A DNA stretch of 64,000 nt from Parachlamydiales bacterium (GCA_020054065.1 JAGVLX010000021.1:17262-81261); one strand, 5' to 3'; numbered from the stretch's first letter, positions 1 to 14,688 are shown. Program-made: numbers and translations. The notes: generated by a model not told the origin, from the sequence alone.

Positions 1-11
1 CTAATCATGGT

Positions 12-52
12 GGTGTTAACTTTCTAAATCATTTCTGATGAAAGTTAACACC
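12..52 (-). terminator. Stem-loop 3' of the 77..316 ORF
   Basis: Perfect 13-bp inverted repeat ggtgttaactttc (12-24) / gaaagttaacacc (40-52) with a 15-nt loop. It lies about 25 nt downstream of the minus-strand stop. No clear U-tract. Confidence 0.35.
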
Positions 53-76
53 GGTGTTTGTGTATTAACTACCACA

Positions 77-316
77 TTAGAAATTAGGGTTAGCATTTAG
101 ATTGTCTCCCTGATTTGTGGCAGGAGTATGCTGTAGATTCGAGTTTGTTCTTTTTGTATTCGTCTCATCTTCAGGATTATTGTTCTCCAACCTGGAATCG
201 TGCATGGAGTCAACCGCTCGTGTATCATTCTCCGAATTTCGTGGAGTAGAATTGATATTTGCTTGTAGGGTTCCCATCAGAAAAAAAGAAAACAAGATCA
301 TTAATCGCTTTGTCAT
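77..316 (-). CDS. Small secreted low-complexity protein (79 aa)
   Basis: ATG with GAGGTG 5 nt upstream. Signal-like N-terminus MTKRLMILFSFFLMGTLQA. The mature part is N/T/S/P/D/E-rich. No recognisable family. Confidence 0.45.
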   Translation of the reverse strand: MTKRLMILFSFFLMGTLQANINSTPRNSENDTRAVDSMHDSRLENNNPEDETNTKRTNSNLQHTPATNQGDNLNANPNF

Positions 317-328
317 TCTATCACCTCG

Positions 329-359
329 TTTATGCCGAGAGGTTATCTCTCGGCATAAA
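329..359 (-). terminator. Stem-loop between the 288-aa disordered-protein gene and the 79-aa gene
   Basis: Perfect 13-bp stem tttatgccgagag (329-341) / ctctcggcataaa (347-359) with loop gttat. It is 3' of the stop at 381. There is no U-tract, so it may be a stabiliser or processing hairpin rather than a strict terminator. Confidence 0.4.
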
Positions 360-380
360 CTTTATTAAAACATATCATTA

Positions 381-1247
381 TTATCGACCTTGACGATATC
401 TTCCTCTGCTTTGATCAGCAGTATTTTCATTTAAATCTTCGTCTTGATCCTCAGTATCTTCATCTAAATCATTTCCCTGATTATAATATTCTTGTCCGTA
501 GTTCCGTTCCGTGCCATAGGCATTTTCATCGCGATCTTCATCGAATGCGTCCTGATCTTCCTGACTCTGCCAACGACTATTTTTTCCCCAGTTTCCTCTT
601 CCTTCAAACTGAGAACGATTGCCCGAAGGTTCATTCCAATCTGGTTGCGAATCCCTTCCGTACCCTGAGTTCCCATATTGGCGGTTGCCGGAGGGTTCGT
701 TCCATTCTTGTGACCCCCTTCCATAACCTGTATTTTCATCTTGCCAATTGCCAGTATTTTGACTTCTCATTTGATTTCCACCGCGGTTACCCATGCGCTG
801 GCCTCCCGATCTTTGACTTCCTGAACGATTACCTCCACGCTGGGTGCCTGAAAGATTGCGCGATTGATTGCCGTAGTTTTGATTGTAATACTCATCTTGA
901 CTAGAAGAGCCTTGTCCATACCCTCCTTGGCCCCCTTGGCCTTCATTCCATTGTCTACCTTGTGTCCAAGAATCTTCTCCAGCATAGGATCTGCCGCCGC
1001 CCCAATCTGAACGAGCGTTCGAACGTCCATAGTTTGAGTTTTCATTATAGCCTCGCCCGCTTTTTCCGTAATTTACATCATTATCTTCAAGATCATATTC
1101 TCTTCCATAACGCGATTGGGATCCCGAGCGCATATCTTGCTGACGGCTTTGGTCACGTGAGCTCTGATTTCTGCCTCTTTGGGATCCTTGAGTTTGGTTC
1201 CCTCTGCTTTTAGAGGTTGAGCGAGAAGTTGAACGTCTAGTTGTCAT
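381..1247 (-). CDS. Intrinsically disordered G/N/Q/S/R-rich protein with interspersed Trp/Tyr, an RS-rich N-terminus and an acidic C-terminal tail (288 aa)
   Basis: Longest frame, with ATG and strong SD (AAGGAG, 6-nt spacer). Almost no aliphatic residues. WNEPSGNR occurs twice. Other frames in this region are low-complexity shadows. Confidence 0.7.
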   Translation of the reverse strand: MTTRRSTSRSTSKSRGNQTQGSQRGRNQSSRDQSRQQDMRSGSQSRYGREYDLEDNDVNYGKSGRGYNENSNYGRSNARSDWGGGRSYAGEDSWTQGRQWNEGQGGQGGYGQGSSSQDEYYNQNYGNQSRNLSGTQRGGNRSGSQRSGGQRMGNRGGNQMRSQNTGNWQDENTGYGRGSQEWNEPSGNRQYGNSGYGRDSQPDWNEPSGNRSQFEGRGNWGKNSRWQSQEDQDAFDEDRDENAYGTERNYGQEYYNQGNDLDEDTEDQDEDLNENTADQSRGRYRQGR

Positions 1248-1553
1248 ACCATGCTCCTTAGATTAAACATTAAAACCTATTTCTACTAAAGGAAGAGACC
1301 CGGAAACCTGCTCTTCTTTATAGAATTTATGAGGATCTTCCATATCCGGTGCAATCCTAAAAATTTCATGAAAAGTGAGGAAAAATTCCAAGCATTTAAG
1401 AATCAAAACGTGCAATAAAATGAAAATAAACGGGAGTTTTTATGCTATTTATTCCCGTTTTAGTGCGGATGGGAATGGTATCTTAGATATTAAAATTAAA
1501 TTTTAAAAAATTAAAATAATATTTATCATTAGGATTGTAACAAAAGGAGAATT

Positions 1554-1712
1554 ATGAGCCTCTACACACTACTGTTAATTATTCTTATTTTGATCTTAAT
1601 CGGAGCCTTGCCAACGTGGCCTTATAGTACTGGCTGGGGATATGGCCCAAGCGGATTGCTGGGAGCCATTGTTCTCATTTTATTAATCTTGATCTTACTC
1701 GGCAGAGTGTAG
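1554..1712 (+). CDS. DUF3309-like small membrane protein (52 aa), below the ORF-track cutoff
   Basis: ATG with AAGGAGA 4 nt upstream. Translation is MSLYTLLLIILILILIGALPTWPYSTGWGYGPSGLLGAIVLILLILILLGRV. The core PTWPYS.GWGYGPSG flanked by two hydrophobic helices matches my recollection of the DUF3309 family. A terminator follows. Confidence 0.65.
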   Translation: MSLYTLLLIILILILIGALPTWPYSTGWGYGPSGLLGAIVLILLILILLGRV

Positions 1713-1720
1713 ATTAAGAG

Positions 1721-1758
1721 AAAAAGGGAAAGAAGTTTTCACTCCTTTCCCTTTTTTT
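1721..1758. terminator. Bidirectional rho-independent terminator
   Basis: Stem aaaaagggaaag (1721-1732) / ctttcccttttt (1745-1756) with an A-run on one side and a T-run on the other. It sits between the convergent DUF3309-like and yciF-like genes. Confidence 0.6.
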
Positions 1759-1783
1759 ATCACGTAAAGACTTTCGCGCTAAC

Positions 1784-2314
1784 CTATCTACTAACTGCTT
1801 GAGCATTGATCCCTGAAGTAATCCAGTTACCCTCTGCTAGCTTTGTTAACGCTTTATTCGTTTTTCCTTCTTCATCTAAGATTTCTTGAAGATTCGACTC
1901 GACTTCTTCCAATCCTAAATGATGGGCAAAGGTTCTTAGGGTTCCATACGTTGCGATTTCATAGTGCTCAATTTTTTGAGCTGCACCAATTAAAGCCGCA
2001 TCTTCTACGAATGGTGGATACCGATGTTTAATCACTTCTTCAGATTCTTCTAAAAGACCTTTGATGGCTTCACATTCTTCTCCTTCAGGGTCTGCTCCTA
2101 AAAGTGAAAACACTTTCTCTAAGCGATCTTTCTGCCCTTTGGTTTCCGTTAAATGCTTTTTAAAAGCATCTTTCAGCTCTTTCGATTTAGCAGCCTCAAT
2201 CATTTTGGGCATATTTTTAACAATTTCAGTTTCCGCATTATAGATGTCTCTTAATTGGTCGAGAAACATCTCATAAAATTCATCGTAATGTTGACCATTG
2301 TTTTTTTTAACCAT
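1784..2314 (-). CDS. yciF: YciE/YciF-family ferritin-like stress protein (DUF892), 176 aa
   Basis: Aligns by eye along its whole length with E. coli YciF (for example DAALIGAAQKIEHYEIATYGTL versus DAALIAAAQKVEHYEIASYGTL). SD AAGGAGG. Confidence 0.85.
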   Translation of the reverse strand: MVKKNNGQHYDEFYEMFLDQLRDIYNAETEIVKNMPKMIEAAKSKELKDAFKKHLTETKGQKDRLEKVFSLLGADPEGEECEAIKGLLEESEEVIKHRYPPFVEDAALIGAAQKIEHYEIATYGTLRTFAHHLGLEEVESNLQEILDEEGKTNKALTKLAEGNWITSGINAQAVSR

Positions 2315-2347
2315 ACAATCCTCCTTGTGAGAGAGCGTACTAATATT

Positions 2348-2623
2348 TTAGAATCTTTTATTTTTTTGAGTAGGAACCTTATGTTCTTCCAAATCCTCAT
2401 CTAGATCTTCGAGAGGTTGATCACGATTGAACTTTTTTTCCCAAGTTGAAAGTTCGTTTTCAGCTTTCTCTTTGGTATAGCCGTAATATTTTTGCAATCT
2501 GCCTAACAGTTCTTCTCGTTTTCCATCAATTTGAGTAATGTCATCATCAGTGAGTTTCCCCCACTGTTGCTTGACTTTCCCTTTGAATTCTTTCCACATT
2601 CCTTTGAATGAATCTTTATTCAT
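2348..2623 (-). CDS. csbD: CsbD/YjbJ-family general stress protein (91 aa)
   Basis: Typical CsbD pattern: KGMWKEFKGKVKQQWGKLTDDDITQIDGKREELLGRLQKYYGYTKE. Confidence 0.85.
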   Translation of the reverse strand: MNKDSFKGMWKEFKGKVKQQWGKLTDDDITQIDGKREELLGRLQKYYGYTKEKAENELSTWEKKFNRDQPLEDLDEDLEEHKVPTQKNKRF

Positions 2624-2645
2624 ATAATCTCCTATTGGTTTTAAA

Positions 2646-3797
2646 TTAAGGTTTTAGAACGACTTTTAAACAACGATCTTGCTTATCATTAAAAATTTTA
2701 TATCCTTTTTTAGCATCGCTTAAGGGCAATGTGTGCGTAATGATGTCATCTAAAACCACTTTCCTTTCGCGAACTAAATTTGTTAATTCACTTAAACCAC
2801 TTGGCAATGGCACAGGTCCGGATTTCAATGTAAGGGCTTTATCAAATAATTGGCCTAAAGAGAAATTGGAATAGTTACCACCGTACACGCCAATAGCTGA
2901 TACAATCCCGCCTCGTCTTACGCCGCTCATAGCGGATTGCAACGCATTGATTGAACCCGCTTGTTGACCGAATGCATTAATCATTTTTTCCCAAAAACTT
3001 TGTTGCGCCTCTAATCCAACGGCATCAATGCACACATCCGCTCCCCGTCCCTCAGTCATTTCGCGTATTTTTTCCACCGCATTAACTTTTTTTGCATGGA
3101 TGGTTTCAGACTTAGCAGTTTGTTTTGCAAGATCTAATCGATAATCTAAAACGTCAATCCCAATCACCCTGCCTGCGCCTTGAAGCCAAGCTGCTTTCTG
3201 CGCCATAATCCCTACTGGGCCGCAGCCAAAGACAGCTACAGTCTCTCCGCCTTTAAGTTCACATCTTTCAACTGCCGCCCATCCTGTAGGAAAAATATCG
3301 GTAAGAAATAATACTTCTTCGTCTTTTAACTGATCATCAACCTTTATGACGCCAAACTTCGCCCAAGGGACGCGCACATACTCAGCTTGTCCCCCATCAT
3401 AATTTCCATTCCCTTCACCTAAACCGAACACTCCGCCACCCTTTTCTTTATCATTTCCTTCGGGCCCATAGTGATGGTTCGTATTTTGGCAGTGTGGAGG
3501 CAATCCATGCGCGCAGAAATAACATTGCCCACATCCGATGATGCAAGGAACGAGGACTCGATCCCCCTTCTTTACATGGGTGATGTTTTTACCGACTTCC
3601 TCGACAATTCCCATGAATTCATGACCCAAATGAATGGGTTTTTCAATGGGAAACAGTCCATTATAGAAATGGAGATCCGTTCCACAGATGGCGGTTGAGG
3701 TGACCTTAATGATCATATCGTTAGGCTTTAAAATGGTGGGATCTGGTACTTCCTCCACTTCAACTTTTTTGGCCTTATGAATCACGACAGCTTTCAT
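2646..3797 (-). CDS. Zn-dependent alcohol/formaldehyde dehydrogenase-like (MDR family), 383 aa
   Basis: Catalytic-Zn motif GHEFMGIVEEVG, structural-Zn cysteines CGQCYFCAHGLPPHC, and Rossmann motif VFGCGPVG. Confidence 0.85.
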   Translation of the reverse strand: MKAVVIHKAKKVEVEEVPDPTILKPNDMIIKVTSTAICGTDLHFYNGLFPIEKPIHLGHEFMGIVEEVGKNITHVKKGDRVLVPCIIGCGQCYFCAHGLPPHCQNTNHHYGPEGNDKEKGGGVFGLGEGNGNYDGGQAEYVRVPWAKFGVIKVDDQLKDEEVLFLTDIFPTGWAAVERCELKGGETVAVFGCGPVGIMAQKAAWLQGAGRVIGIDVLDYRLDLAKQTAKSETIHAKKVNAVEKIREMTEGRGADVCIDAVGLEAQQSFWEKMINAFGQQAGSINALQSAMSGVRRGGIVSAIGVYGGNYSNFSLGQLFDKALTLKSGPVPLPSGLSELTNLVRERKVVLDDIITHTLPLSDAKKGYKIFNDKQDRCLKVVLKP

Positions 3798-3806
3798 AGT
3801 GTATCC

Positions 3807-4142
3807 TTATTGCTGTGGATTTGTGGCTTTATTTTCAGTTTTCTTGGGTGTCTGCTGATCAAAGGGTGAGTGGCTTTTATTTTGATCTTTCAAAATCGCA
3901 TTTTGGGAAGGAGTATCAGGACTAGTGGGAGTCGGGATCGAAGAGTGGTATACGTCTTTTATCTGAATGTTAGTATCATTAGAGGTTTTTGGGGTACTCA
4001 TAGTTTGTTCAGAAGGCGTAAATCCATAATTATTAGGGTTTGCTGGTGATAAATTTTCATACTTTTGAGTATGCGGATTATACTGATCTGCATAAGAATG
4101 GAACGTGAGCGCGATAAATAGGGCGGATAAAATAAATTTCAT
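3807..4142 (-). CDS. Small secreted low-complexity protein (about 111 aa from the internal ATG)
   Basis: The ORF is open to 4178, but the ATG at 4142 (AGGTG upstream) starts a signal peptide MKFILSALFIALTFHSYA. The mature part is P/T/S/N/Q-rich, similar in character to the 77..316 product. Confidence 0.45.
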   Translation of the reverse strand: MKFILSALFIALTFHSYADQYNPHTQKYENLSPANPNNYGFTPSEQTMSTPKTSNDTNIQIKDVYHSSIPTPTSPDTPSQNAILKDQNKSHSPFDQQTPKKTENKATNPQQ

Positions 4143-4150
4143 ACACACCT

Positions 4151-5305
4151 TCAAGGTTTTAAGACAACTTTGACACACTCTTCATCTTTATCATTAAAGA
4201 TTTTGTAAGCGTGAGAGGCTTTGTCCAAGGGAAGTTTATGACTGATGATATCGTGAAGAACCACTTTTTTCTCTTTAACTAGTTTTAGCAGGGTATCAAT
4301 GTAATGATGTACAGGCGCTTGACCTGAACGTATCGTAATTCCCTTATCAAAAATTTGACCCAGGGGAAAATCTGAAAACTTTGTCGCATAGACGCCCAGA
4401 ATGGAAACAGTGCCGCCCCGACGAACAGCACTTAAGCAGTTCGTAAGCACTTTCATGGTTCCACCCTCTTGTTTAATTGCGCCTTTCGTTTTTTCATAAA
4501 TAGTTCGATCCGCTTCCATTCCTACAGCATCTACACAGACATCTGCTCCCCGGCCTTCTGTGATATTTCTTATCATTTTGATGACGTCATCTTGGTTATA
4601 GTTAAACGTTTCAGAATTAGCTGTTTTTTTAGCCATTTCCAACCGATAGTCTAAAATATCAATGCCGATGACTCTTCCGGCTCCATTTAACCATGCCGCT
4701 TTTTGCGCCATAATGCCTACCGGACCGCATCCAAAAACCACAACCGTTTCTCCACCTTTTAAACGTGCCCAATCAATTCCTGACCAACCCGTGGGAAAGA
4801 TATCAGTTAAAAAAAGCACTTCTTCATCGCTTAAATCATCATCAATTTTTCTTGGGCCTACGTCTGCATAAGGAACTCTCACATACTCTGCTTGGCCCCC
4901 ACTATAACCCCCGTATAGGTCTGTATAACCAAAAAGAGCGCCTCCTTTTTCTTTTTCGTCTCCTTCAGGTCCATACATTTCTGGATTTGAATTTTCACAA
5001 TGACCAGGCAAAGAGTGATGACAAAAGAAACACTGCCCGCAAGCAATAGGAAAAGGAACTACGACACGGTCCCCTTTCTTTAAATTTTTAACATTTTTAC
5101 CCACCTCTTCGACGATCCCCATAAACTCATGACCTAAGACCATCGGCTTTTTTTGAGGGATAAATCCGTTATAAATATGAAGATCTGATCCGCAAATGGC
5201 CGTTGAAGTCACTTTCAAAATGACATCATTTTCATCTTCGATTTTGGGATCAGGAACATGATCAACTTGAACTTTTTTTGAACTATGGAATACCAACGCC
5301 TTCAT
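4151..5305 (-). CDS. Zn-dependent alcohol/formaldehyde dehydrogenase-like, paralog of 2646..3797
   Basis: Same motifs as its paralog (GHEFMGIVEEVG, CGQCFFCHHSLPGHC, VFGCGPVG). Well over half of positions are identical to the neighbour by eye. The ATG at 5305 (GGAG upstream, MKALVFH parallels MKAVVIH) is preferred over the TTG at 5335. Confidence 0.85.
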   Translation of the reverse strand: MKALVFHSSKKVQVDHVPDPKIEDENDVILKVTSTAICGSDLHIYNGFIPQKKPMVLGHEFMGIVEEVGKNVKNLKKGDRVVVPFPIACGQCFFCHHSLPGHCENSNPEMYGPEGDEKEKGGALFGYTDLYGGYSGGQAEYVRVPYADVGPRKIDDDLSDEEVLFLTDIFPTGWSGIDWARLKGGETVVVFGCGPVGIMAQKAAWLNGAGRVIGIDILDYRLEMAKKTANSETFNYNQDDVIKMIRNITEGRGADVCVDAVGMEADRTIYEKTKGAIKQEGGTMKVLTNCLSAVRRGGTVSILGVYATKFSDFPLGQIFDKGITIRSGQAPVHHYIDTLLKLVKEKKVVLHDIISHKLPLDKASHAYKIFNDKDEECVKVVLKP

Positions 5306-5363
5306 ATCTTTACTCCGTACTTGATTTAGACTCAAGCTGACTAAAAAACAAAGTGTTAGGTAA

Positions 5364-5389
5364 TGACATGGCAGCGTGCTGCCATGTCA
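5364..5389 (-). terminator. Rho-independent terminator after the BON-domain gene
   Basis: Palindrome tgacatggcag-cgtg-ctgccatgtca, followed on the minus strand by a T-rich run (ttgtttttt). Confidence 0.5.
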
Positions 5390-5406
5390 AAGAAAAATAG
5401 TGGGAA

Positions 5407-6051
5407 TTATCTATTGACTGTGACTTGGTTATTAACGGCTTTGACGCCATCAATTTTTTTAATTTCGTTGGTGATGTATTGAACGTCGGAGTCTTTATCC
5501 ACTAAACCCGTTACTGTCACATTCCCATTGCTGGTATTGAGTTGAATATTTTTATACCCTTTCGTAAACCAGCCATCGCCTAACTTTTCGCGGATTTGTT
5601 TATTGATACGGCGATCGGCATCGGTTGCCGCAGTATCTAGTGAAGATTTTGTGTCTGTGTCTGTGTGGTTAGCAATATAGTTTCTATTGCTTTGATTATT
5701 ATAGGAAGACTTAGGAGCCACATTGATTTGATTGATGACATTCACCACGCCATCCACTTTTCTGACTTTATCTTCAATTTTTTGTTTTTCATCTTGCGTA
5801 TCTACCGAACCTCTTAAGGTTACGGTGCCGTTGACCACATCTGCCGTGACGTCTTCATAGCCTCTGGAAAACCAACCCGATTTGAGGTTGTCTTGTATCT
5901 CCTTGCGAATTTTAGCATCGTTGCCATTTGTGGTTTGGGTATTGCCATTGCTATAAGAATTGCTATTGTTGCTGTAAGTATTGTAAGCTGCTTGTACAAC
6001 TCCGAATTGCGCAATCAACCCGATTGCAGCTAGAAGACCTATTTTTTTCAT
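5407..6051 (-). CDS. Secreted OsmY-like protein with two BON domains (214 aa)
   Basis: Signal peptide MKKIGLLAAIGLIAQFGVVQA. Two repeats of the BON pattern (V.NGTVTLRGSVD...KV.GV..V.NQ..V). SD AGGAGG. Confidence 0.85.
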   Translation of the reverse strand: MKKIGLLAAIGLIAQFGVVQAAYNTYSNNSNSYSNGNTQTTNGNDAKIRKEIQDNLKSGWFSRGYEDVTADVVNGTVTLRGSVDTQDEKQKIEDKVRKVDGVVNVINQINVAPKSSYNNQSNRNYIANHTDTDTKSSLDTAATDADRRINKQIREKLGDGWFTKGYKNIQLNTSNGNVTVTGLVDKDSDVQYITNEIKKIDGVKAVNNQVTVNR

Positions 6052-6070
6052 AAAAACCTCCTGTGGAATT

Positions 6071-7660
6071 TTATTTTATAGGTTTAATTTTACTCTCTTT
6101 TTCTTGTTCAACATTCACTTTTTCTAAGCCATGTAAAGCTGGGCCGCATAAAACTTCACCATTCACATCAAAGCGGGATCCATGACATGGACAATCCCAC
6201 GAGTTTTCAATGGGATTCCAATGAACTTCCCCATTGAGATGCGTACATCTCGCTGAAAGTGGATACAGGTTTCCTTGGTGATCTTTGTAAACAGCAATCT
6301 TATGGATGCCATTTTGAATCACGCTTCCCGTGCCGCGCTCTATTTGATCTTCATGATGACATTTTTCGGGTGTGATCCAATCTAGATATTGATTAGCTGT
6401 ATTCAAGTTTTCTTCAAAAAAGCTACCCATTGCATTGAGCGTTTTGCGAGAAGGGTCATAAATTTTTTCCCATGGGTTTGCTCTTGCCATGATCAAATCT
6501 GTTATTAATAGTCCTGCTATCGTGCCATGCGTTAATCCATTTCCTGAATCGCCTGTTCCGATAAACACGTTCTTAGAATCAAGGGGATTACGTCCAATAA
6601 ACGCGAGCGAATCAACCGGTTCTAAAATTTGTCCTGACCATTGGTAGGTGATTTCCTTTAATGCGGGAAACCGTTGCTTTGACCAATTTTTTAGATTTTG
6701 AAACCGTTCTTCATACTCGTGATCTTGACCTGTACGCGTATCCTCTCCTCCAATTAACAGCATAAAATGGGTCGCAAAATCTGGATCTGTCGACGACAGC
6801 TGACAGACTCTAATATAATGATAAGGATCGCCAGTATCCCAGTAGAGTCCTTTAGAAATATCTGTTCTGGGTATTTTTCCTCCAATCACATAGGTTCTAT
6901 AAGCCGCCTGTTTGGTATGAATGACAAAGCGGTCATTGATGGGACTGTTGGTTGCGACGATCAGATATTTGGATTTTATCTTATGTCCATGGCTCGTTTT
7001 AACTAGACAAGAGCTTTCATCATTTTCAAAAGAATCGGCAGAAGTAAAATTATAGATCAACCCTCCTTGTCTCGTGATTGCGCCTGTCAATCCATTTAGA
7101 TATTTGACCACATCAAATTCAGCTTGATTGGGAAAAAAGATGCATGGCCCTGTATCAAATGATTGGATGGGAGCCCGCTGAACAATTCTTGCCGCAGATA
7201 AATTGAGTTGATGAAGGGCATCTAATTCTCTACTTAATGTTTCAGGTTTATCGTCGGCATGAAGAAAAAGGTAACCATTAACGCGTTCAAAATCACAATT
7301 AATTTTTTCATCTAGGATAATTTGTTCAATACGATCCACGGCGGTGCGGTGGCTTTCCAACGCGAGCTGAGAATTTGCAACTCCAAAAAGATCGATCAAA
7401 TCATAGAAGCGGTCATCTAATGCATAGGTCAAATGTCCAGTTGTACGGAATGTTTCCCCGCTTCCAATTTCGCCATCATCAAGAACAACGACCGAAACGC
7501 CCTCTTTGGAAAGAAAATAGGCGCAGCTAAGACCTGTAATTCCTGCGCCTACGATGCAAACATCAGTTTCTAAATCTTGCTCTAAAGCAGGAAATAACTT
7601 AACTGTGTTCGTTCCCTTCCAGAACGATTTTGTACCCAACTGCTCTTGTTTCATAATCAT
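6071..7660 (-). CDS. FAD-dependent oxidoreductase with C-terminal Rieske [2Fe-2S] domain (about 527-529 aa)
   Basis: Dinucleotide-binding motif VCIVGAGITGLSCAYFL. Rieske motif CTHLNGEVHW...CPCHGSRF. The architecture resembles B. subtilis YhfW. The second ATG (7654) has the better SD spacing. Confidence 0.8.
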   Translation of the reverse strand: MIMKQEQLGTKSFWKGTNTVKLFPALEQDLETDVCIVGAGITGLSCAYFLSKEGVSVVVLDDGEIGSGETFRTTGHLTYALDDRFYDLIDLFGVANSQLALESHRTAVDRIEQIILDEKINCDFERVNGYLFLHADDKPETLSRELDALHQLNLSAARIVQRAPIQSFDTGPCIFFPNQAEFDVVKYLNGLTGAITRQGGLIYNFTSADSFENDESSCLVKTSHGHKIKSKYLIVATNSPINDRFVIHTKQAAYRTYVIGGKIPRTDISKGLYWDTGDPYHYIRVCQLSSTDPDFATHFMLLIGGEDTRTGQDHEYEERFQNLKNWSKQRFPALKEITYQWSGQILEPVDSLAFIGRNPLDSKNVFIGTGDSGNGLTHGTIAGLLITDLIMARANPWEKIYDPSRKTLNAMGSFFEENLNTANQYLDWITPEKCHHEDQIERGTGSVIQNGIHKIAVYKDHQGNLYPLSARCTHLNGEVHWNPIENSWDCPCHGSRFDVNGEVLCGPALHGLEKVNVEQEKESKIKPIK

Positions 7661-7717
7661 CCTAGACTAGCATTTGGAATGCTGGTTTTTACTTTGAAAG
7701 GTCTAAAAGCATTCGGC

Positions 7718-7798
7718 TTAAATAATGCCCAATAGTTTTAGAATGATGAGTACAGAGAGAGGAACCCCAAGAAGCCACAAAATTAACATTCTGCCCAT
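7718..7798 (-). CDS. Possible 26-aa hydrophobic peptide (MGRMLILWLLGVPLSVLIILKLLGII)
   Basis: ATG with GAGGT about 6 nt upstream and a single TM-like helix. It resembles small stress-island membrane peptides. It is too short for codon statistics. Confidence 0.3.
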   Translation of the reverse strand: MGRMLILWLLGVPLSVLIILKLLGII

Positions 7799-8164
7799 AC
7801 GTCTACCTCGTTGTTTCTCTCGACTATAAAGATACACGGGTTTCTATCAAAATATTTTTTTAAACTGAGGCGAATTTATTAACTTTATATCACTACAGCA
7901 TCCACACTTAATTGTGGATGGAGAATAAAAAAATACAATAAACGCTCCCGTTTATTATTTTTATTAAAAAAACACCATTAATACTCCCTTTTTATTTTTA
8001 CTTAAAAATTTACTTAGTCTGAGAGAGTTGATAATAGGCCTTCCGTCGCCCTCACTTTTTTGATTGCGATTTTATGTTTGGGATCACATACGTATATTCA
8101 AGAAGGATACGAATTTTCGTTTGCCTTTTAGCTAACGAATTGTAACAAATTAAGGAGGACTCTC

Positions 8165-8824
8165 ATGCCTACAAGAAAATCCTCAAATCGTTCGCGCCAA
8201 TTAACTGGACGCGGATCCCCCACTACCTCGAGACAAGCTTCCACTCCCAACCGTGGAAGGACGTCTGCGCAGAAAAATACAACTTCAGGGCGATCTTCAA
8301 CACAACGGGGACAAACAAATCGTTCTAATGCTCAAGGCGGAAATCGCTCCCAAAGTAGAAGTCGTCAAGAATCCGGTAGAACGGGAACATCGCGTTGGGA
8401 ACGAGACGATGAAAATAGGATGGATCAAAGTGGTCGTGGAGGAACTCAAAGAAGAGCGCAAAATGTAACAGAAAATAGACGTGGAAGTAACGTGAACACG
8501 CGTGGCAGAAACTTTGGTTATGAAAACCCAGGCAGACAGCGTCCAAGAAAAGACACAGAAAGAGCGCAAGATCGCTTCCAACAAACTGAAAGACAAAACG
8601 CGCAAGGAAGAAGAAATCCTGAGTTTGGTCAATACGATATTGAATTTGAAGAGGATTTTCAAGAAGAGAGAAATCCGCGCCAAAGAGGCGAGATGCGCAG
8701 TCAAAACCAGCGTTCGGGGAGACAAGGACAAGAAACGGGCTGGGGCGAATTAAGTGAAGAATATGATGAAGAGGGCGAGTATACTCCTTCAAATAGAAGA
8801 ACTGCCTCTAGTCGCAGAAGATAA
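8165..8824 (+). CDS. Intrinsically disordered R/S/T/Q/N/G-rich protein with an acidic C-terminal region (219 aa), paralog-like to 381..1247
   Basis: ATG with AAGGAGG 6 nt upstream. The N-terminus MPTRKSSNRSRQ parallels MTTRRSTSRSTS of the 288-aa protein. A strong terminator follows. Confidence 0.7.
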   Translation: MPTRKSSNRSRQLTGRGSPTTSRQASTPNRGRTSAQKNTTSGRSSTQRGQTNRSNAQGGNRSQSRSRQESGRTGTSRWERDDENRMDQSGRGGTQRRAQNVTENRRGSNVNTRGRNFGYENPGRQRPRKDTERAQDRFQQTERQNAQGRRNPEFGQYDIEFEEDFQEERNPRQRGEMRSQNQRSGRQGQETGWGELSEEYDEEGEYTPSNRRTASSRRR

Positions 8825-8844
8825 AATGAAATTCCCATGTTGGT

Positions 8845-8882
8845 CGGAAAAATGACTTAAGTCATTTTTCCGATTTTTTTTA
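8845..8882 (+). terminator. Rho-independent terminator
   Basis: Perfect 28-nt palindrome cggaaaaatgactt/aagtcatttttccg (8845-8872) followed by a T-run (8874-8882). Confidence 0.7.
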
Positions 8883-8890
8883 AGGGCTTT

Positions 8891-9757
8891 ATGAAAACAG
8901 AAAAAAAGACAAAGAAGAGAAAACCTCAACACCAGCGTCCCCCTGGCATCCAATCCAAAATGCAGCCCATCCCGCATCCCGAAAAAGATTCATCCAGAGG
9001 AAGTGACAAGCTTTTAAATAAAGTAGCGATCATCACGGGAGGAGACAGCGGGATTGGAAGAGCAGTCGCGGTTGAATTTGCCAAAGAAGGGGCAAATGTC
9101 GTTGTCGTTTATTTAAAAGAGCATGCTGATGCAAAGGAAACGCAAAAATTAGTAGAGCAAAAAGGAAGAGAATGCCTTTTAATCTCTGGAGATGTGGGGA
9201 AAGAATCGTTTTGCAAAACGATTGTTCACCAAACAATCCAACAATTCGAAAAAATCGATATTCTTATTAATAATGCAGCAGAGCAGCATCCTCAAAAATC
9301 TCTTTTAGCGATTACTGAAAAGCAACTTGAACGGACATTTAGAACGAATATCTTTTCCTATTTCTTTTTGACTAAAGCAGCGTTGCCGCATCTTCAAAAA
9401 ACACGTGGTGTCATCGTTAACACCACATCTGTCACGGCATATCGCGGAAGCGATCACCTATTAGATTATTCAGCAACGAAAGGAGCCATTGTTTCCTTCA
9501 CACGGTCGCTCTCTCTTGCGCTTATAGATAAAGGAATACGAGTAAATGGAGTAGCCCCTGGACCGATTTGGACACCACTCATTCCTTCTACCTTTCCCCC
9601 GAAAAAGGTAGCGACATTTGGTTCCGATGTGCCCATGAAACGAGCGGGAGATCCTTCAGAAGTCGCTCCCTGTTATGTTTTTCTTGCTTCGGATGATTCT
9701 TCATATATCTCCGGACAGATTTTGCATCCTAATGGCGGCGAAATCATCAACACCTAG
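8891..9757 (+). CDS. SDR-family oxidoreductase of the YghA/YdaD/YhdF (general stress protein 39) type, 288 aa
   Basis: N-terminal PPGIQSKMQPIP, TGGDSGIGRA, YSATKGA and a C-terminal region all align by eye with E. coli YghA. Confidence 0.9.
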   Translation: MKTEKKTKKRKPQHQRPPGIQSKMQPIPHPEKDSSRGSDKLLNKVAIITGGDSGIGRAVAVEFAKEGANVVVVYLKEHADAKETQKLVEQKGRECLLISGDVGKESFCKTIVHQTIQQFEKIDILINNAAEQHPQKSLLAITEKQLERTFRTNIFSYFFLTKAALPHLQKTRGVIVNTTSVTAYRGSDHLLDYSATKGAIVSFTRSLSLALIDKGIRVNGVAPGPIWTPLIPSTFPPKKVATFGSDVPMKRAGDPSEVAPCYVFLASDDSSYISGQILHPNGGEIINT

Positions 9758-10196
9758 TCGTCATCTGAAAAACATGAATTGTTTTTGATCGAGCATCAGC
9801 GAGATCCCAGACTATTTGTGCCGGGCTTGCAGCCCTCGACCAAATTTTTGATCTGCATCCCAGCCCTGCACTCGCTTCGCACGTTTGGACTGGGCTATAA
9901 AACTGCCGGACCTTCGGTCCTCATGAATCGCGAGTTTCTTGCAGATTCCAGAGCACCGCAGGGGCGGTCATTTGCTCTGACTGGTACTCTTTCACTCGTG
10001 CCAACTCCGAAGGTCCGAAGGACCGACAATTTTAAAGCCTAGTCCGCAGTGAGCGTAGCGAACGGAGGGCTAGGTAAAAGATAAAATCGGATTGAGCCCT
10101 GTAAGGACGGCACAAAGACAAACCCTCACTGAATTAGCTTGATGCGTATGTGCAGAGCACCGTACTCCAAAAGTACGCTGCGCGCACGGTAAATGT
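9758..10196. repeat. Hairpin-dense, comparatively GC-rich non-coding block at a convergent gene junction
   Basis: Many local stems (ggacc-ttc-ggtcc, ggtcc-gaa-ggacc, accgc-aggg-gcggt, cgtact-ccaaa-agtacg, cctag...ctagg). Also an 11-nt long-range inverted repeat cggaccttcgg (9907-9917) / ccgaaggtccg (10007-10017). Confidence 0.5.
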
Positions 10197-10436
10197 TTAA
10201 TGGACTAACTCGTGATTTTGGTTAAACTCTACCGGCCGGCCGGTTTTTAATTCTTCTTTCCTTTGAGGAAAAGGTGCGTTTCTCTTTTTTTCCAGCTCGA
10301 CAAGAGCTTTTTCAAGCGCTTCTTCTGTCATGGATGCGATTGTGAGCCCAGGAGTCCAGTAGACTGCATTTCTTACGCGTTCAATAAGGTCCAAAGAGAG
10401 ATGGATTGTGATTCTTTGTTTTACAGTTTTTGGCAT
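10197..10436 (-). CDS. Ribbon-helix-helix (CopG/ParG-like) DNA-binding protein, 79 aa
   Basis: The pattern RITIHLSLDLIERVRNAVYWTPGLTIASMTEEALEKALVELE is a typical RHH fold. The tail PFPQRKEELKTGRP recalls small ParA-partner centromere binders (from memory). No ParA gene is adjacent. Confidence 0.55.
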   Translation of the reverse strand: MPKTVKQRITIHLSLDLIERVRNAVYWTPGLTIASMTEEALEKALVELEKKRNAPFPQRKEELKTGRPVEFNQNHELVH

Positions 10437-10451
10437 ATTCTCACTTCAATT

Positions 10452-10766
10452 TTATGTTTTGCTTTCATCAGGTAATTTTTTAATGATTTGTTTAAAATCC
10501 TCCCACTTTAAAGCTGGCCATACTTCGACGGACGCGTGACCGAATGACCTTACAAGAGATGAAACTTTAAATGCGGTTTCCAAATCGTTTGCTTCAAAAA
10601 TATCCACATAATCGTAATCGGAAAAGGTGGCGTAGTTCGCAAGCCATTTCACCTCGGGACACACTTTTTTTATCTTTGCTTCTACTTGTTGCTGAAGTTC
10701 AATAAGGGTTTGCTTAGAAGGATGAACTTCTTTTCCAATTAGCCTTGTTAACATAATGTAGATCAT
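10452..10766 (-). CDS. GYD-domain protein (104 aa)
   Basis: MIYIMLTRL... then SDYDYVDIFEANDLETAFKVSSLVRSFGHASVEVWPAL, which matches the GYD family pattern (G-Y-D, apd.e.a, s.G...t.T). Confidence 0.7.
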   Translation of the reverse strand: MIYIMLTRLIGKEVHPSKQTLIELQQQVEAKIKKVCPEVKWLANYATFSDYDYVDIFEANDLETAFKVSSLVRSFGHASVEVWPALKWEDFKQIIKKLPDESKT

Positions 10767-11031
10767 CTATCCCTCTCCTAAATTGATTTGGATAGGATTA
10801 AATAAACGGAGATCGTTTGTATACTATTCAAATATACAAAATTGGCAGGGATGCGGTGTTGATTTAGTCTCTGTGTTTTTAAGCATCTATTCACCTAGTT
10901 TGGTTTGTAAAAACTTAAACCGAGCGTAACACCTAAAAAATAATGAATTTACCTAATCACATGTTATATGCATTAGGTTAATAAAAAAACATTTTTTGGC
11001 AAGATTTTTTTGAGTACATCTTGCGTGAAAG

Positions 11032-11370
11032 CTATCTATTTTCAACCGCTATACGATTAAAAACTGCATTCACACCATCGGTTGCCCGAATTGTACTAAG
11101 CACTTTCTCAGCATCTTCAGAGCTTTGAACAGTGCCGGAAACCTCAACATCACCATTTTTTGTACTGATGGCGATGGAATCATAACCTTGTAAGCCTTCT
11201 TGCTTCAAGCGGTCGCGGATGCGTGCATTGATCACACGATCGGAATCAGTTAGGGAAAAATCTTGGGACATCTCTTTTTTCGCCGGTACATCTTGCGGGC
11301 GAACATTCGTTTGAGCTATTAGCGATTGAGTGATCACTATCATCGCGGAGAGTAAAAACATTTTACGCAT
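11032..11370 (-). CDS. Secreted single-BON-domain protein (112 aa)
   Basis: Signal peptide MRKMFLLSAMIVITQSLIAQ. BON pattern ISTKNGDVEVSGTVQS...ATDGVNAVFNRIAV. Confidence 0.8.
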   Translation of the reverse strand: MRKMFLLSAMIVITQSLIAQTNVRPQDVPAKKEMSQDFSLTDSDRVINARIRDRLKQEGLQGYDSIAISTKNGDVEVSGTVQSSEDAEKVLSTIRATDGVNAVFNRIAVENR

Positions 11371-11498
11371 AGATCCTCTTGAAAAATGGGACTTTTGCTG
11401 TCGATCATATGTTTTTTTGAATTGCCTGCAAATTTTAATTATTAATCTGAAGGCGTATTAGACATATGTCTATCATAATAAGCATTTTATTGTAATTG

Positions 11499-11575
11499 TT
11501 CCACTCTGTGATCTCTGTGTTCTCTTCGGTTAATTACAATTTTTCACCACAGAGAACACAGAGATCCCAGTGGAA
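11499..11575. repeat. Word-repeat hairpin (CACAGAG/CACTGAG family), copy 1, 3' of the SDR gene
   Basis: Perfect 15-bp stem atctctgtgttctct (11511-11525) / agagaacacagagat (11551-11565), plus outer stem ttccact / agtggaa. Confidence 0.7.
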
Positions 11576-11591
11576 CCCCATGTCAAAAGGG

Positions 11592-12314
11592 CTACGTGTA
11601 GATCATTTTTTTGGTCATACCGCCATCGACGATGAAATTCTGTCCGGTCATAAATGAAGCGTTTTCGCTGATAAGAAATCCAACAATGGCTGCAATATCT
11701 TCAACAGTGCCTACTCGTCCGCAAGGGTGTTGTTGATGGTCAGATTTTTTTAACGGTGTATCTTCTGTATGAATCCATCCGGGACTGATGCAATTCACAC
11801 GAATCTCAGGTCCTAAGCTGATGGCAAGAGCATGCGTCAGGGATACAATGCCGCCCTTGGAAGCACTATAGGCTTCCGTGTTGGGTTCTGATTGCAGATA
11901 GCGTGTAGAAGCGATGTTAACGATGACACCTTTTTGTTTGCGTAACTCTGGAATTGCATGTTTGCAACACAGAAATGTTCCGGTTAAGTTAGCATCGATG
12001 GTTTTTTGCCACTCTTTCAGGGAGAGTTTTTCCGGTGCAGGACGTTTTTCTCCGATGACAATTCCTGCGTTATTGATGAGAACGTCTAATTTGCCAAAAC
12101 GAGCGATCGTCTGTTTGATCAGTTTAGATACAGCCGTTTCGCTGCTGATATTGGTTTTAATGTATAGGATTCTAGAACGATCCGTTTGAAGTGCTTTGTG
12201 AGAAGGAGTCACAACATCGGCAATGACAACGCGATCGTGTTGTTGAAGAAGATACTGTACAATACCGGCGCCGATCCCATTGGAGCCACCGGTCACAATG
12301 GCTACCCGTTGCAT
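11592..12314 (-). CDS. Classical SDR (3-oxoacyl-ACP reductase/glucose dehydrogenase-like), about 240 aa
   Basis: TGGSNGIGAG, NNAG and YSASKGG motifs. The ATG at 12314 with GAGGA upstream is preferred, because the upstream GTG extension overlaps the hppA terminator hairpin. Confidence 0.85.
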   Translation of the reverse strand: MQRVAIVTGGSNGIGAGIVQYLLQQHDRVVIADVVTPSHKALQTDRSRILYIKTNISSETAVSKLIKQTIARFGKLDVLINNAGIVIGEKRPAPEKLSLKEWQKTIDANLTGTFLCCKHAIPELRKQKGVIVNIASTRYLQSEPNTEAYSASKGGIVSLTHALAISLGPEIRVNCISPGWIHTEDTPLKKSDHQQHPCGRVGTVEDIAAIVGFLISENASFMTGQNFIVDGGMTKKMIYT

Positions 12315-12333
12315 AGCGTATTCCTCTGTAAAT

Positions 12334-12360
12334 TTGGAGCGCAGAGTCACTGCGCTCCAA
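12334..12360 (-). terminator. Hairpin 3' of hppA
   Basis: Perfect 11-bp stem ttggagcgcag / ctgcgctccaa with loop agtca, located 12 nt after the hppA stop. The U-tract is weak. Confidence 0.5.
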
Positions 12361-12371
12361 ATCTCAAGATA

Positions 12372-14456
12372 CTACGACACTGCCAACATAGCAAGCAGTA
12401 AGAGGGCAACAATATTGGCGATTTTGATCATGGGGTTAATCGCAGGTCCTGCTGTATCTTTGTACGGGTCTCCTACAGTATCCCCTGTCACTGCAGCTTT
12501 ATGTGCCTCAGAGCCCTTGCCTCCGAAGTGGCCATCTTCAATGTATTTTTTAGCATTATCCCATGCACCGCCTCCGGATGTCATAGAGATCGCCACAAAC
12601 AATCCGGTGACAACAGTACCTAGCAACATGGCTCCCACCGCAACAAACGCTTCGCTTTGTCCAGCGAAGTAGTTGATGGCGAAATAGAGCACAATCGGTG
12701 CAAAGACAGGCAGCAAGGATGGTAAAATCATCTCTTTAATCGCAGCTTTGGTCAGCAGATCCACTGCGCGTCCGTAGTTTGGACGGGCTTTCCCCTCCAT
12801 AATCCCAGGAATTTCTTTAAACTGGCGTCTGACTTCCACGACGACAGAACCTGCAGCGCGGCCGACAGCCATCATGCTTAAAGAACCGAAGAGATAGGGC
12901 AGCAAACCGCCCACAAACAGGCCGACAACGACATACGCATCTTGCAGCTGGAATTGCAACTGAAGATTAGGGAAGTAGTGAGTGAGGTCTTCGATAAAGG
13001 CTGCAAACAGTACGAGCGCCGCTAAACCAGCTGAACCGATAGCATACCCTTTGGTGACCGCTTTAGTCGTGTTCCCCACAGCATCCAGCGCATCCGTAGT
13101 TTTACGCACATCTGGCGGCAGGTTGGACATCTCTGCGATCCCGCCGGCGTTATCGGTGACAGGACCGTAGGCGTCGAGGGCAACAACCATTCCTGCCAAG
13201 GCCAGCATGGCGGTAGCAGCAACGGCAACACCCATCAAGTGGGCGTTTAAGTAGGAAATAAGAATCCCACCGCAGATGACCAAGACTGGTGCTGCAGTCG
13301 ATTCCATCGACACCGCTAAGCCTTGAATGATATTTGTCGCATGGCCTGTTGTCGAAGCTTTCGCGATGCTGCGCACAGGGCGGTGGGTTGTCGCGGTATA
13401 GTATTCCGTAATCCATACAATCAATCCGGTGACGCCGAGCCCTGCCAAGGCGCAATAAAACAAGTTAATCGGCTTATAGGCAATTCCATTGCTTTGGAAC
13501 ACCTGATCGGGATTGAACAAATATTTAGTGACGCCGAAGATGGCAAAGGCTGATAAGATCGCTGTCGCAAAGAATCCTTTGTAAAGGGCGCCCATGATAT
13601 TGTTTGAGCTGCCTAAGCGTACAAACAAAGTTCCGATAACGGAAGTGATGACGCAAACGCCGCCGATCAACAGCGGGTAGAGCATCATTGTTTCTTGCAC
13701 ATATTCTTTGAACAATGTCCCTGCCAGCAGCATGCAACCCACAATGGTCACCACATAGGTTTCGAAGAGATCGGCCGCCATGCCAGCACAATCCCCTACG
13801 TTGTCGCCAACGTTATCGGCAATCACAGCTGGGTTGCGTGGATCATCTTCCGGAATCCCCGCTTCAATTTTACCGACCAAGTCAGCACCGACGTCGGCGC
13901 CTTTGGTAAAAATACCGCCGCCAAGACGTGCAAAAATGGAAATTAAGGAGGCGCCAAATCCAAGCGCAACGAGGGCTTGCAAAATATGGTTCATCGGCAC
14001 GCCCTGAGATTTCAAGAAGACGTAGTAGATGGTGATGCCCAGCAGCGCCAAGCTGACAACGAGCAGCCCTGTGATCGCCCCGGATTTGAAGGCGATATCC
14101 AATGCAGGCTTAAGACCGCGGCGGGCAGCTTCAGCAGTGCGCACGTTAGCCCTTACTGAAACGTTCATCCCGATATATCCGGCAGCGCCTGATAGAATCG
14201 ATCCAATTAAAAAGGCGATTCCAACATAAGTTCCTAGTTTCCAAGTCAAAAAGGCAAAGATGAGGATCCCAACCACTGTTACAGTCTGATATTGGCGGTT
14301 CAGGTAAGCGCGCGCGCCCTCTTGAATCGCAGAGGCAATCTTTTGCATCTGCTCATTACCGGTGCTTTGGGAAAGGACAGACCGGATCAAATAAACCCCG
14401 TACAAGAGGGCAAAGATCCCGCATGCCACAACGATTCCGTATGAGTTAGCTATCAT
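12372..14456 (-). CDS. hppA: Membrane-bound H+-translocating pyrophosphatase, K+-independent signature (694 aa)
   Basis: Motifs [19 protein letters not shown] and [10 protein letters not shown]. As I recall, Lys and Thr at these positions mark K+-independent enzymes. About 16 TM helices. Confidence 0.95.
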
Positions 14457-14506
14457 TGATTTTCCTTTTGTGGTGATAAAAAAAACATTTAATAATTGGT
14501 ATAAAT

Positions 14507-14535
14507 TTGATACTGCAAATCAGCAAATTTGTCAA
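14507..14535 (-). promoter_or_regulatory. Candidate sigma-70/66-type promoter for hppA
   Basis: On the minus strand: TTGACA-N17-TATCAA, about 50 nt upstream of the hppA ATG. Confidence 0.35.
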
Positions 14536-14572
14536 GGTAAGGCTGACTCCCCTCTTGCTTAGTTGTTCCCTA

Positions 14573-14671: not shown

Positions 14672-14688
14672 ATCAATAAGCTTCTTGG

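Follow-up and report, generated by a model that had tools for sequence, protein, structure and literature searches.

An island of general-stress-family genes in an environmental chlamydia, and its possible part in survival outside the host

The DNA considered here is a stretch of 64 kb ('the window') from a Parachlamydiales bacterium (GCA_020054065.1, JAGVLX010000021.1:17262-81261), with positions counted from its first letter. Its positions 77 to 12,360 hold a block of genes, many from general-stress families, which is here called the island. We think it probable, if well short of certain, that this is a real accessory island of about 16 functional protectant genes in an environmental (amoeba-type) chlamydia, that these genes are expressed late and carried in the elementary body (EB), and that they originated in a reshuffled chlamydial pool. 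The families themselves are already known. What is unusual is instead their assembly, that is, 16 genes in one block, with an added FAD/Rieske oxidoreductase (FAD, flavin adenine dinucleotide), a duplicated alcohol dehydrogenase (ADH), GYD and DUF3309 proteins, and orphan intrinsically disordered proteins (IDPs). The latter, rich in R, S, G and Y, are the most novel elements of the locus. The long extracellular survival of environmental chlamydiae is only partly understood, and the island is a compact, testable candidate gene set. It is also a natural case of general-stress protectants being kept in a lineage that lacks a general-stress sigma factor, and as such bears on the rewiring of stress regulons during intracellular adaptation.

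That the window is chlamydial follows from its synteny. It carries the gene blocks ychF/sctU/sctV/copN/scc1/malQ and rpsA/nusA/infB/rbfA/truB, and this order of type III secretion and rpsA-nusA-infB genes is that of C. trachomatis CT087-CT098. The source species is absent among GTDB representatives. On the left the island continues past the window, and on the right it ends between g16 (SDR252) and the gene of a proton-pumping pyrophosphatase (H+-PPase).

Gene content and layout

All 16 open reading frames (ORFs) that a prior, sequence-only reading of this DNA had listed in the first 12.4 kb were found in place, and one small ORF is added. From left to right, the features are as follows (aa, amino acids; nt, nucleotides; GC3, G+C fraction at third codon positions; SDR, short-chain dehydrogenase; RBS, ribosome-binding site; MITE, miniature inverted-repeat transposable element).

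77-316, minus strand: g01, 79-aa secreted, N/T/S-rich low-complexity peptide, 3' of g02, with Sec-type N-terminus MTKRLMILFSFFLMGTLQA; GC3 0.39
381-1247, minus: g02 (IDP288), orphan hydrophilin-like disordered protein
1554-1712, plus: g03, DUF3309 small membrane protein of 52 aa (Pfam PF11752, 72.6 bits)
1784-2314, minus: g04, YciF-like ferritin-fold protein (DUF892; Pfam, 177 bits), last gene of the main operon
2348-2623, minus: g05, CsbD/YjbJ-family protein (Pfam CsbD, 68.9 bits)
2646-3797, minus: g06, Zn-dependent ADH paralog 1, 383 aa (ADH_N and ADH_zinc_N)
3807-4142, minus: g07, 111-aa secreted low-complexity peptide between the ADH genes, with signal-peptide-like N-terminus MKFILSALFIALTFHSYA
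4151-5305, minus: g08 (ADH394), Zn-dependent ADH paralog 2, 384 aa from M11 (ADH_N and ADH_zinc_N)
5407-6051, minus: g09, secreted protein with signal peptide and two BON domains (Pfam, two stretches, 95 bits), OsmY-like architecture
6071-7660, minus: g10, DAO-type FAD oxidoreductase with C-terminal Rieske [2Fe-2S] domain (Pfam DAO, 168 bits; Rieske, 45 bits)
7718-7798, minus: small ORF, 26-aa hydrophobic membrane peptide MGRMLILWLLGVPLSVLIILKLLGII, with RBS-like AGGTAG upstream
7823-7850, minus: predicted sigma-70/66-type promoter, TTGATA-N16-TATAGT (10/12 match), before the operon running from the small ORF through g10 to g04
8165-8824, plus: g11 (IDP219), orphan hydrophilin-like disordered protein, 20% R, net charge +17
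8842-8875, plus: strong terminator-like hairpin, 15-bp stem and T-run, 3' of g11
8891-9757, plus: g12 (SDR288), YdaD/YhxC/YghA-type SDR, 288 aa
9815-10116, no strand: MITE-like element, an imperfect palindrome of about 300 nt in the gene-free gap 9758-10196, at the junction of the island halves
10197-10436, minus: g13, 79-aa, N-terminally truncated relic of a ParG-like (CopG/RHH-type) partition protein
10452-10766, minus: g14, GYD-domain protein (Pfam GYD, 70.6 bits)
11032-11370, minus: g15, secreted single-BON protein with signal peptide (Pfam BON, 47.6 bits)
11592-12350, minus: g16 (SDR252), second SDR (Pfam), 252 aa, 21 nt 3' of the H+-PPase gene; GC3 0.42 versus 0.55 for the latter

Domain calls rely on Pfam gathering scores and on NCBIfam curated cut-offs. 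Each domain call of the sequence-only reading (YciF, CsbD, three BON domains in two secreted proteins, two SDRs, the Zn-ADH pair, FAD/Rieske, DUF3309 and GYD) passes its Pfam gathering score, and the automatic names given to the exact same proteins by the Joint Genome Institute (JGI) agree with the domain calls (YciE-like ferritin, YjbJ/UPF0337, OsmY twice, and GYD). OsmY/BON, YciF, CsbD/YjbJ and YdaD/YghA-type SDRs are indeed, as had been pointed out, characteristic families of the RpoS, SigB and EcfG general-stress regulons. The Sec-type N-termini of the BON proteins and of both low-complexity peptides, the secretion of the latter also having been proposed earlier, are read from sequence.

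Resemblance to individual named stress proteins varies. The YciF-like protein matches YciF stress proteins in the PDB (4eru, E 5e-33; 2gs4, E 1e-28). SDR288 passes, over its full length, the NCBIfam model NF005214 (PRK06701, YdaD/YhxC-type) with 433.5 bits versus a cut-off of 413, and its closest PDB match is 3i3o of B. anthracis (E 2e-109; 3r3s follows with E 1e-72), but it lies under the cut-offs of the E. coli YghA-type equivalog models (313 versus 481, and 276 versus 538). The CsbD-family protein reaches 96.6 bits on the NCBIfam YjbJ model, under its cut-off of 113. The two-BON protein fails the OsmY equivalog model NF007858 by a wide distance (28.8 bits versus 174); it is OsmY-like in layout only. 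Neither g01 nor the small ORF matches a Pfam family.

Oxidoreductases account for five of the 16 genes, with cofactor and Zn motifs intact, and the island may for that reason be viewed instead as a catabolic or detoxification operon, i.e., one in which the FAD/Rieske protein, the two Zn-ADHs and the two SDRs oxidise a specific alcohol, amine or aldehyde of the host or environment, with BON, CsbD and YciF being incidental. The curated family nearest to g08, glutathione-independent formaldehyde dehydrogenase, would suit such a role, as would linkage of FAD/Rieske genes to an SDR gene in a second, probably chlamydial cluster (L084, below) and to an ADH gene in the Bacteroidota sequence L020. The score of g08 on the formaldehyde dehydrogenase model, though, is far under its cut-off, and on the NCBIfam profiles, where scores fall far below every equivalog cut-off, no specific substrate is assignable. 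The paralogs are 62% identical to one another; g06 is 55% identical to Bacteroidota ADHs encoded beside YciF, while g08 is 63-66% identical to Bacteroidota ADHs and matches PDB 4cpd (E 1e-65). The FAD/Rieske protein is 94% identical to its sister ortholog and at most 55% identical to anything further, with thousands of matches in soil bacteria and no full-length relative with a solved structure. The island has neither a transporter nor a regulator, and no additional enzyme of a pathway; its YdaD/YghA-type SDR counts among the classical general-stress proteins, and the oxidoreductase genes are interleaved with those for BON, CsbD and YciF within one operon, a linkage which recurs elsewhere. A catabolic role for the island thus strikes us as distinctly improbable.

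The tight spacing claimed for the minus-strand genes is borne out, with 8-33 nt between genes from g10 to g04 except for one gap of about 100 nt, which contains a hairpin. Spacing and RBSs suggest about seven transcription units overall. The largest predicted unit, on the minus strand, consists of the small ORF, FAD/Rieske, the two-BON gene, the hairpin, ADH, secreted peptide, ADH, CsbD and YciF. Running divergently from it are IDP219, the strong terminator and SDR288. A second divergent pair has IDP288 followed by the 79-aa secreted peptide on one side and DUF3309 on the other. The right part of the island, divided from the left by the gene-free gap, comprises GYD followed by g13, then the single-BON gene, and SDR252.

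Some details of the sequence-only reading are corrected. ADH394 probably starts at M11 (5305) rather than at 5335, and g07 probably at M13 (4142) of what had been called as a 123-aa peptide. The mobile-element relic g13 had gone unlisted, and 9758-10196 is gene-free. The small ORF, also unlisted earlier, encodes a peptide which is identical in the sister contig L090 despite a synonymous divergence (dS) of 0.38 (dN 0); it is for this reason accepted as real, and is the probable first gene of the main operon.

Both disordered proteins fit the hydrophilin definition (Gly above 6%, hydrophilicity index above 1), as their earlier description as hydrophilin-like would imply. The grand average of hydropathy (GRAVY) is -2.09 for IDP288 and -2.12 for IDP219, and Gly makes up 16.7% and 11.0%, respectively. 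IDP288 is laid out as a basic R/S-rich head, a G/Y/N/Q/R-rich middle, an acidic C-terminal region and an RxGR tail, with RG/GR, SR/RS and [GSNQ]Y[GSNQ] motifs exceeding what is seen in composition shuffles. No homolog of IDP288 was found at E<=1e-3 in 5.8e9 proteins, and no relative of IDP219 among 1.84e9 representatives. Within the sister contig L090 the C-terminal half of IDP288 is recognisable, and the IDP219 ortholog has a 43-aa insertion.

A comparable protein occurs elsewhere. Beside a BON-CsbD-YciF trio in the sequence L003, of another chlamydial lineage, at 11701-12522 on the minus strand, is a gene for a 273-aa, R/S/T/G/N-rich hydrophilin-like protein (GRAVY -1.55), the N-terminus of which (MVTKTSRSSS…) and tail (…RSGR) are like those of the window's orphan IDPs. 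Common to all three are an M-x-T-[RK]-x-S head, an N-terminal part that is basic and R/S/T-rich, and a tail of the R-x-GR type; all have very few aliphatic residues and an excess of RG/GR and SR/RS, with an excess of [GSNQ]Y[GSNQ] in two. IDP288 and IDP219 are not alignable, and pairwise BLAST between them and with the L003 protein is marginal. The three may constitute one fast-evolving family.

Selection, composition and origin

The Logan contigs L001 and L090, which share a 30-nt overlap, belong to one genome, here the sister genome; L082 is about 99% identical to L090. The whole island is syntenic in the sister genome, with gene-sized differences. Ratios of nonsynonymous to synonymous divergence (dN/dS) were obtained for 14 island genes and lie at 0.00-0.21, a range shared by the PPase and oligopeptide permease (Opp) genes, so the island genes are functional rather than decaying. 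Values are 0.01-0.02 for YciF, 0.02 for CsbD, 0.04 for g13, 0.06 for g06, 0.065 for SDR288, 0.08 for the single-BON protein, 0.115 for g07 (95.5% conserved in L082), 0.19-0.20 for the two-BON protein and 0.21 for IDP219. The GYD protein is 100% identical in L001 at a dS of 0.14, and the DUF3309 peptide is identical in L090.

In the sister genome SDR252 has been cleanly removed except for about its first 45 nt. Conversely, the sister strains carry, between the small ORF and the FAD/Rieske gene, an extra BON gene (120-124 aa) along with a 201-aa YflT/DUF1269-like gene (L082 105-1083; L090 2356-3346). The window is without both, having lost this 1.06-kb segment. A 178-aa protein of L084 shares 49% identity with the 201-aa protein, which otherwise has weak YflT/DUF1269/glycine-zipper matches. 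At L090 5715-7099 a segment with ADH394 and the secreted peptide (window 3840-5113) is missing, with the remaining ADH called in fragments. The ADH duplication and IDP288 thus look damaged in L090, either because the duplication is truly decaying there or because of faulty assembly.

Such differences are among the observations that invite a deflationary reading, namely that this is a plasticity-zone hotspot of unrelated, horizontally acquired and decaying genes, with the stress flavour being a by-product of the donor pool and with no functional integration. Gene-sized indels between close strains (the sister's loss of SDR252 and possibly of ADH394 and IDP288), an atypical composition, a mobile-element relic together with a MITE-like element, and absence of a shared regulatory motif all would be expected of such a hotspot. 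Purifying selection as strong as in core genes, on all of the genes tested, would not be, nor would a seven-gene operon that is intact and syntenic in the sister lineage. Moreover, the same family combinations are seen in three other chlamydial lineages and in Bacteroidota, unlike random accretion. We consequently hold it unlikely that the island is an accumulation of this sort.

The composition, for which the 64 kb of the window serve as the reference, is distinct. All 16 island genes are low in GC3, with a mean of 0.365 versus 0.507 for the window's 34 remaining genes (Mann-Whitney p=4.6e-7), and the Karlin codon-bias distance is 0.293 versus 0.12+-0.02 for random gene sets, the maximum of this null being 0.193. 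At the right edge, from SDR252 to PPase, the GC3 change is abrupt. The left half of the island (1-9757; L090/L082) has dS values of 0.19-0.42, versus 0.06-0.12 for the flanking core genes (12372-24259; L001), i.e., 3-4 times as high within a single genome pair. That is a hint that recombination has replaced alleles there or that the mutational regime differs.

As for relatives, the best matches of the YciF protein are in two chlamydial metagenome-assembled genomes (MAGs; 50-53% identity), followed by Bacteroidota and bacteria of the Planctomycetes-Verrucomicrobia-Chlamydiae (PVC) group (45-53%), with chlamydiae accounting for 2 of the best 80 YciF loci. The L003 cluster comprises BON2-CsbD-YciF, the 273-aa hydrophilin-like protein and another BON gene, and adjoins rnhB/rplS/trmD. 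The L084 cluster, from what is probably a chlamydia, runs BON, YflT-like, DUF892, FAD/Rieske, SDR (75% identical to SDR288) and DUF6496, and adjoins a fused glyQS and rlmN. L002 has three DUF892 paralogs. The chromosomal sites of the clusters differ among L003, L084 and the window. Some genomes of free-living Bacteroidota have, near YciF, a YdaD-type SDR (about 60% identity), a Zn-ADH (63-66%) and a FAD/Rieske protein.

That a set of this kind should be unexpected in a chlamydia, as the sequence-only reading had it, is therefore overstated, the families being annotated in environmental chlamydiae and small clusters recurring in chlamydial MAGs. Neither is the island a scatter of housekeeping orthologs shared by all Chlamydiae, the scenario that would have undone that reading. 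Its suggestion of a horizontally acquired module fares in part: foreign-looking composition and mobile-element traces are in keeping with transfer, but a recent import from free-living bacteria is disfavoured by the (weak) chlamydial grouping of YciF and by the occurrence of the closest SDR, at 75%, in a probable chlamydia. What fits is derivation from an accessory stress-gene pool, long present in environmental chlamydiae and reshuffled among them, as distinct from both core inheritance and recent free-living import. The island's genes, that is, indicate a mobile, reshuffled accessory stress-gene pool among chlamydiae.

One of the mobile-element traces is g13. It is 65-72% identical to proteins of about 110 aa in Parachlamydia, Protochlamydia, a Parachlamydiaceae MAG and Cardinium, some of which are named CopG/RHH by JGI. 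Full-length homologs are encoded directly 3' of a ParA ATPase, either in elements of about 12.8 kb with DnaB, integrase and YhcG or in an integrase/primase island. The window's copy instead follows GYD, without ParA and without the N-terminal 45 or so residues. On this evidence it is a relic or domesticated copy of a ParG-like partition protein from a chlamydial plasmid or integrative element, rather than a stress gene. A ribbon-helix-helix (RHH) fold was not confirmed for it. Its AlphaFold2 model (predicted local-distance score, pLDDT, of 68) has an extended N-terminal segment and two helices; Foldseek against the PDB returned nothing significant, and there was no Pfam or PDB sequence match. 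L086-L089 are near-identical Parachlamydia-type elements of about 12.8 kb with DnaB, YhcG nuclease, integrase, acetyltransferase, ParA and a g13-family protein. Their sources are a Parachlamydia assembly at NCBI, one JGI metagenome and a number of sequencing runs, and they represent a widespread chlamydial plasmid or integrative element.

The MITE-like palindrome next to g13 has 34-nt terminal inverted repeats and a minimum free energy of -143.6 kcal/mol (z -8.6). As to structured RNA in this gap, only two inverted, sub-threshold matches to Rfam Acido-Lenti-1 were obtained (24 and 21 bits versus a gathering score of 37), and the window as a whole contains no tRNA or Rfam RNA genes. At the corresponding position the sister genome has an unrelated sequence of about 320 nt.

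Other features lie beside or beyond the island. Long hairpins at 11506-11570 and 14573-14671, with 27-28-nt arms that are 85-86% complementary, bracket the H+-PPase and SDR252 unit; they are similar in sequence (…CACAGAGAACACAGAGATC… and …CACTGAGAACACTGAG…), may be REP-like (repetitive extragenic palindromic) elements, and the first is deleted along with SDR252 in the sister genome. Adjoining PPase, at 14689-18741 (minus), are large genes for a 776-aa protein, whose one match, to AAA_16, is weak, and for a 544-aa protein without a family, both kept in the sister genome, the latter with a relatively high dN/dS of 0.19. Directly 3' of the oppABCDF operon is a 2335-aa ORF (25261-32268, plus) without a Pfam match at E<=1e-4. 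Eukaryote-like genes for RasGEF (47549-49828, GC3 0.36) and BTB + LRR (49942-51435) are inserted at 46823-51435, with the conserved block truB/ribF on one side and rlmL/ychF on the other. RasGEF has the low GC3 of the island, and so does the neighbouring gene at 46823-47509. Insertions of such eukaryote-like proteins are typical of chlamydiae associated with amoebae, and those here are probable host-interaction effectors.

Regulation and proposed role

The predicted promoter ahead of the main operon keeps both hexamers in L090 while its spacer has diverged, which reads as the phylogenetic footprint of an ordinary sigma-70/66-type promoter. Since the promoter is of this ordinary sigma-66 type, timing of the main operon would come via chlamydial stage regulators and not via a dedicated stress sigma factor. 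No sigma factor genes were found in the window, its large ORFs having been covered, and upstream regions inspected by eye yielded no convincing match to the SigB (GTTTAA-N12-15-GGGTAT), sigma-28 or sigma-54 consensus. Chlamydiae possess Rsb-type partner-switching proteins but are not known to have SigB.

Candidate shared elements were nevertheless considered. The motif CGTTTATT is enriched (13 occurrences versus 3 expected, 6 being within the island), and the exact 11-mer TCCCGTTTATT is present 5' of both IDP genes, at 1425-1435 and 7946-7956; in the second divergent intergenic region the latter forms a perfect palindrome, AATAAACG-N4-CGTTTATT. As a conserved island operator CGTTTATT/TCCCGTTTATT is rejected, being absent in L082 and L084 and mutated in L001 and L090. 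A second exact 11-mer, ATTGTAACAAA, is common to both divergent intergenic regions (1533-1543 and 8138-8148). Its core, TTGTAACAA, has just two exact occurrences, one ahead of the g03 RBS and one ahead of that of g11, and is similar to the GTAACAA core that de Barsy et al. (PMC4989314) quote for C. trachomatis Euo. With one mismatch allowed it is not enriched, and it is altered in L090; as a Euo-like site it is a lead only. Neither the enriched motif nor either 11-mer is kept by the sister strain or by the related clusters.

In terms of function, the secreted BON proteins and secreted hydrophilic peptides would act as stabilisers of the envelope and periplasm. Macromolecules of the cytoplasm would be shielded, at low water activity and in metabolic quiescence, by YciF, CsbD, GYD, the small membrane peptides and both hydrophilin-like IDPs. 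The five NAD(P)/FAD oxidoreductases may clear reactive aldehydes and carbonyls or maintain redox balance. Expression late in development and carriage in the EB would then, by analogy with Protochlamydia, lengthen survival outside of the host.

It is this analogy that gives the extracellular-survival link its support, albeit indirect, the link having been raised already by the sequence-only reading. In P. amoebophila pc0632 (CsbD), pc0952 (YhxC), pc0953 and pc1147 (both YciF) and pc1171 (OsmY) are all of expression class late I/II and all present in the EB proteome (Koenig et al. 2017, PMC5451489, Data Set S1). Two of these, the YhxC-type SDR gene pc0952 and the YciF gene pc0953, are adjacent (PMC5451489). 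Heinz et al. 2009 (PMC2811131) also include an OsmY cluster in their list of envelope proteins predicted for chlamydiae. Beyond that listing and the supplementary table of PMC5451489, our literature search found no paper linking chlamydiae with CsbD, YciF or general-stress islands.

Protectants of these families need not serve outside of the host. They might instead defend replicating or persistent bacteria within it, against oxidative burst, osmotic change or amoebal encystment, and not the extracellular EB. In free-living bacteria the same families do answer oxidative, osmotic and stationary-phase stress, and the RasGEF and BTB/LRR effectors of the window suggest an amoebal host, one that encysts. 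The Protochlamydia family members, however, peak at 96 hours post infection and extracellularly, have their minimum at 48 hours, when there are reticulate bodies only, and are found in the EB proteome (PMC5451489), all of which makes a primarily intracellular defence quite unlikely in our estimation.

A bolder version of the extracellular role may be considered as well, though we regard it as doubtful. The island would be a dedicated EB 'dormancy kit', a functional counterpart of spore and cyst protectants, in which the lineage-specific disordered proteins IDP288, IDP219 and the 273-aa protein of L003 would protect the cytoplasm or nucleoid by forming condensates or glasses, with timing set by developmental regulators (Euo-type repression or SigB-less Rsb partner-switching) rather than by a stress sigma factor. 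Were this true, then a general stress response would have been rewired into a developmental programme.

Several observations weigh against the reading we prefer, i.e., an accessory, late-expressed, EB-carried protectant island drawn from a chlamydial pool. Low GC3 is seen also in the equivalent L084 cluster (0.39 versus 0.55) and weakly in L003, and for that reason may reflect expression-linked codon usage and not transfer. Some of what sets the sister genome apart may stem from artefacts in the Logan unitig assembly. In the neighbour-joining tree the five chlamydial YciF copies do group together, with Phycisphaerales as neighbours, but with bootstrap values of only 21-43%. No integrase, tRNA or direct repeats were found at the island edges, with the left edge lying outside of the window. 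The shared alternative-sigma motif that the sequence-only reading had proposed to look for was not found among the island's upstream regions, both of the shared exact 11-mers being mutated in the sister strain. Correspondence between window and Protochlamydia genes is at the level of families only. Lastly, we know of no biochemically defined protective mechanism for any of these proteins, even in model bacteria.

Likeness to known systems

The RpoS-dependent genes osmY, yciGFE, yjbJ and yghA of E. coli represent the same families as found in the island, that is, the YciF fold, CsbD/YjbJ, a secreted two-BON protein and a YghA-type SDR. There YciG is a short, basic, hydrophilic partner, whereas the island has orphan IDPs with no sequence relation to it. 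The E. coli genes are scattered while those of the island are clustered in 12 kb. RpoS, furthermore, is absent here, as is evidence of RpoS-type promoters, the island's main operon having a predicted sigma-70-type one, and the island's proteins do not reach the OsmY, YjbJ and YghA equivalog cut-offs. With the SigB regulon of B. subtilis (csbD, ydaD/GSP39, yhxC, yflT/GSP17M) the island shares the CsbD family and the SDR that passes PRK06701, and the sister strain's version of the operon adds a YflT/DUF1269-like gene; no SigB-type promoter was seen on inspection of the island's upstream regions.

Hydrophilins and late embryogenesis abundant (LEA)-like proteins offer a parallel for the two IDPs, both of which fit the hydrophilin definition and adjoin stress genes, as does the similar protein of the L003 cluster. 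LEA proteins, though, have K/E/A-rich amphipathic repeats, whereas the IDPs of the window are R/S/G/Y/N/Q-rich, with RG, SR and [GS]Y[GS]-type motifs, and are unrelated in sequence to known families.

Chlamydial plasticity zones, genomic islands and ParA-ParG plasmid partition modules are a further likeness, in that the island is atypical in composition, changes in gene content from strain to strain and holds the relic of a partition protein. It is, though, without integrase, tra genes, a tRNA target or flanking direct repeats, with ParA absent and g13 truncated. The best functional analogue is the set of late-expressed, EB-carried stress-family genes of P. amoebophila, which shares with the island its phylum, its lifestyle, four families and the SDR-YciF adjacency. 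Those genes are dispersed over four loci, whereas here 16 genes stand together in one compositionally distinct block.

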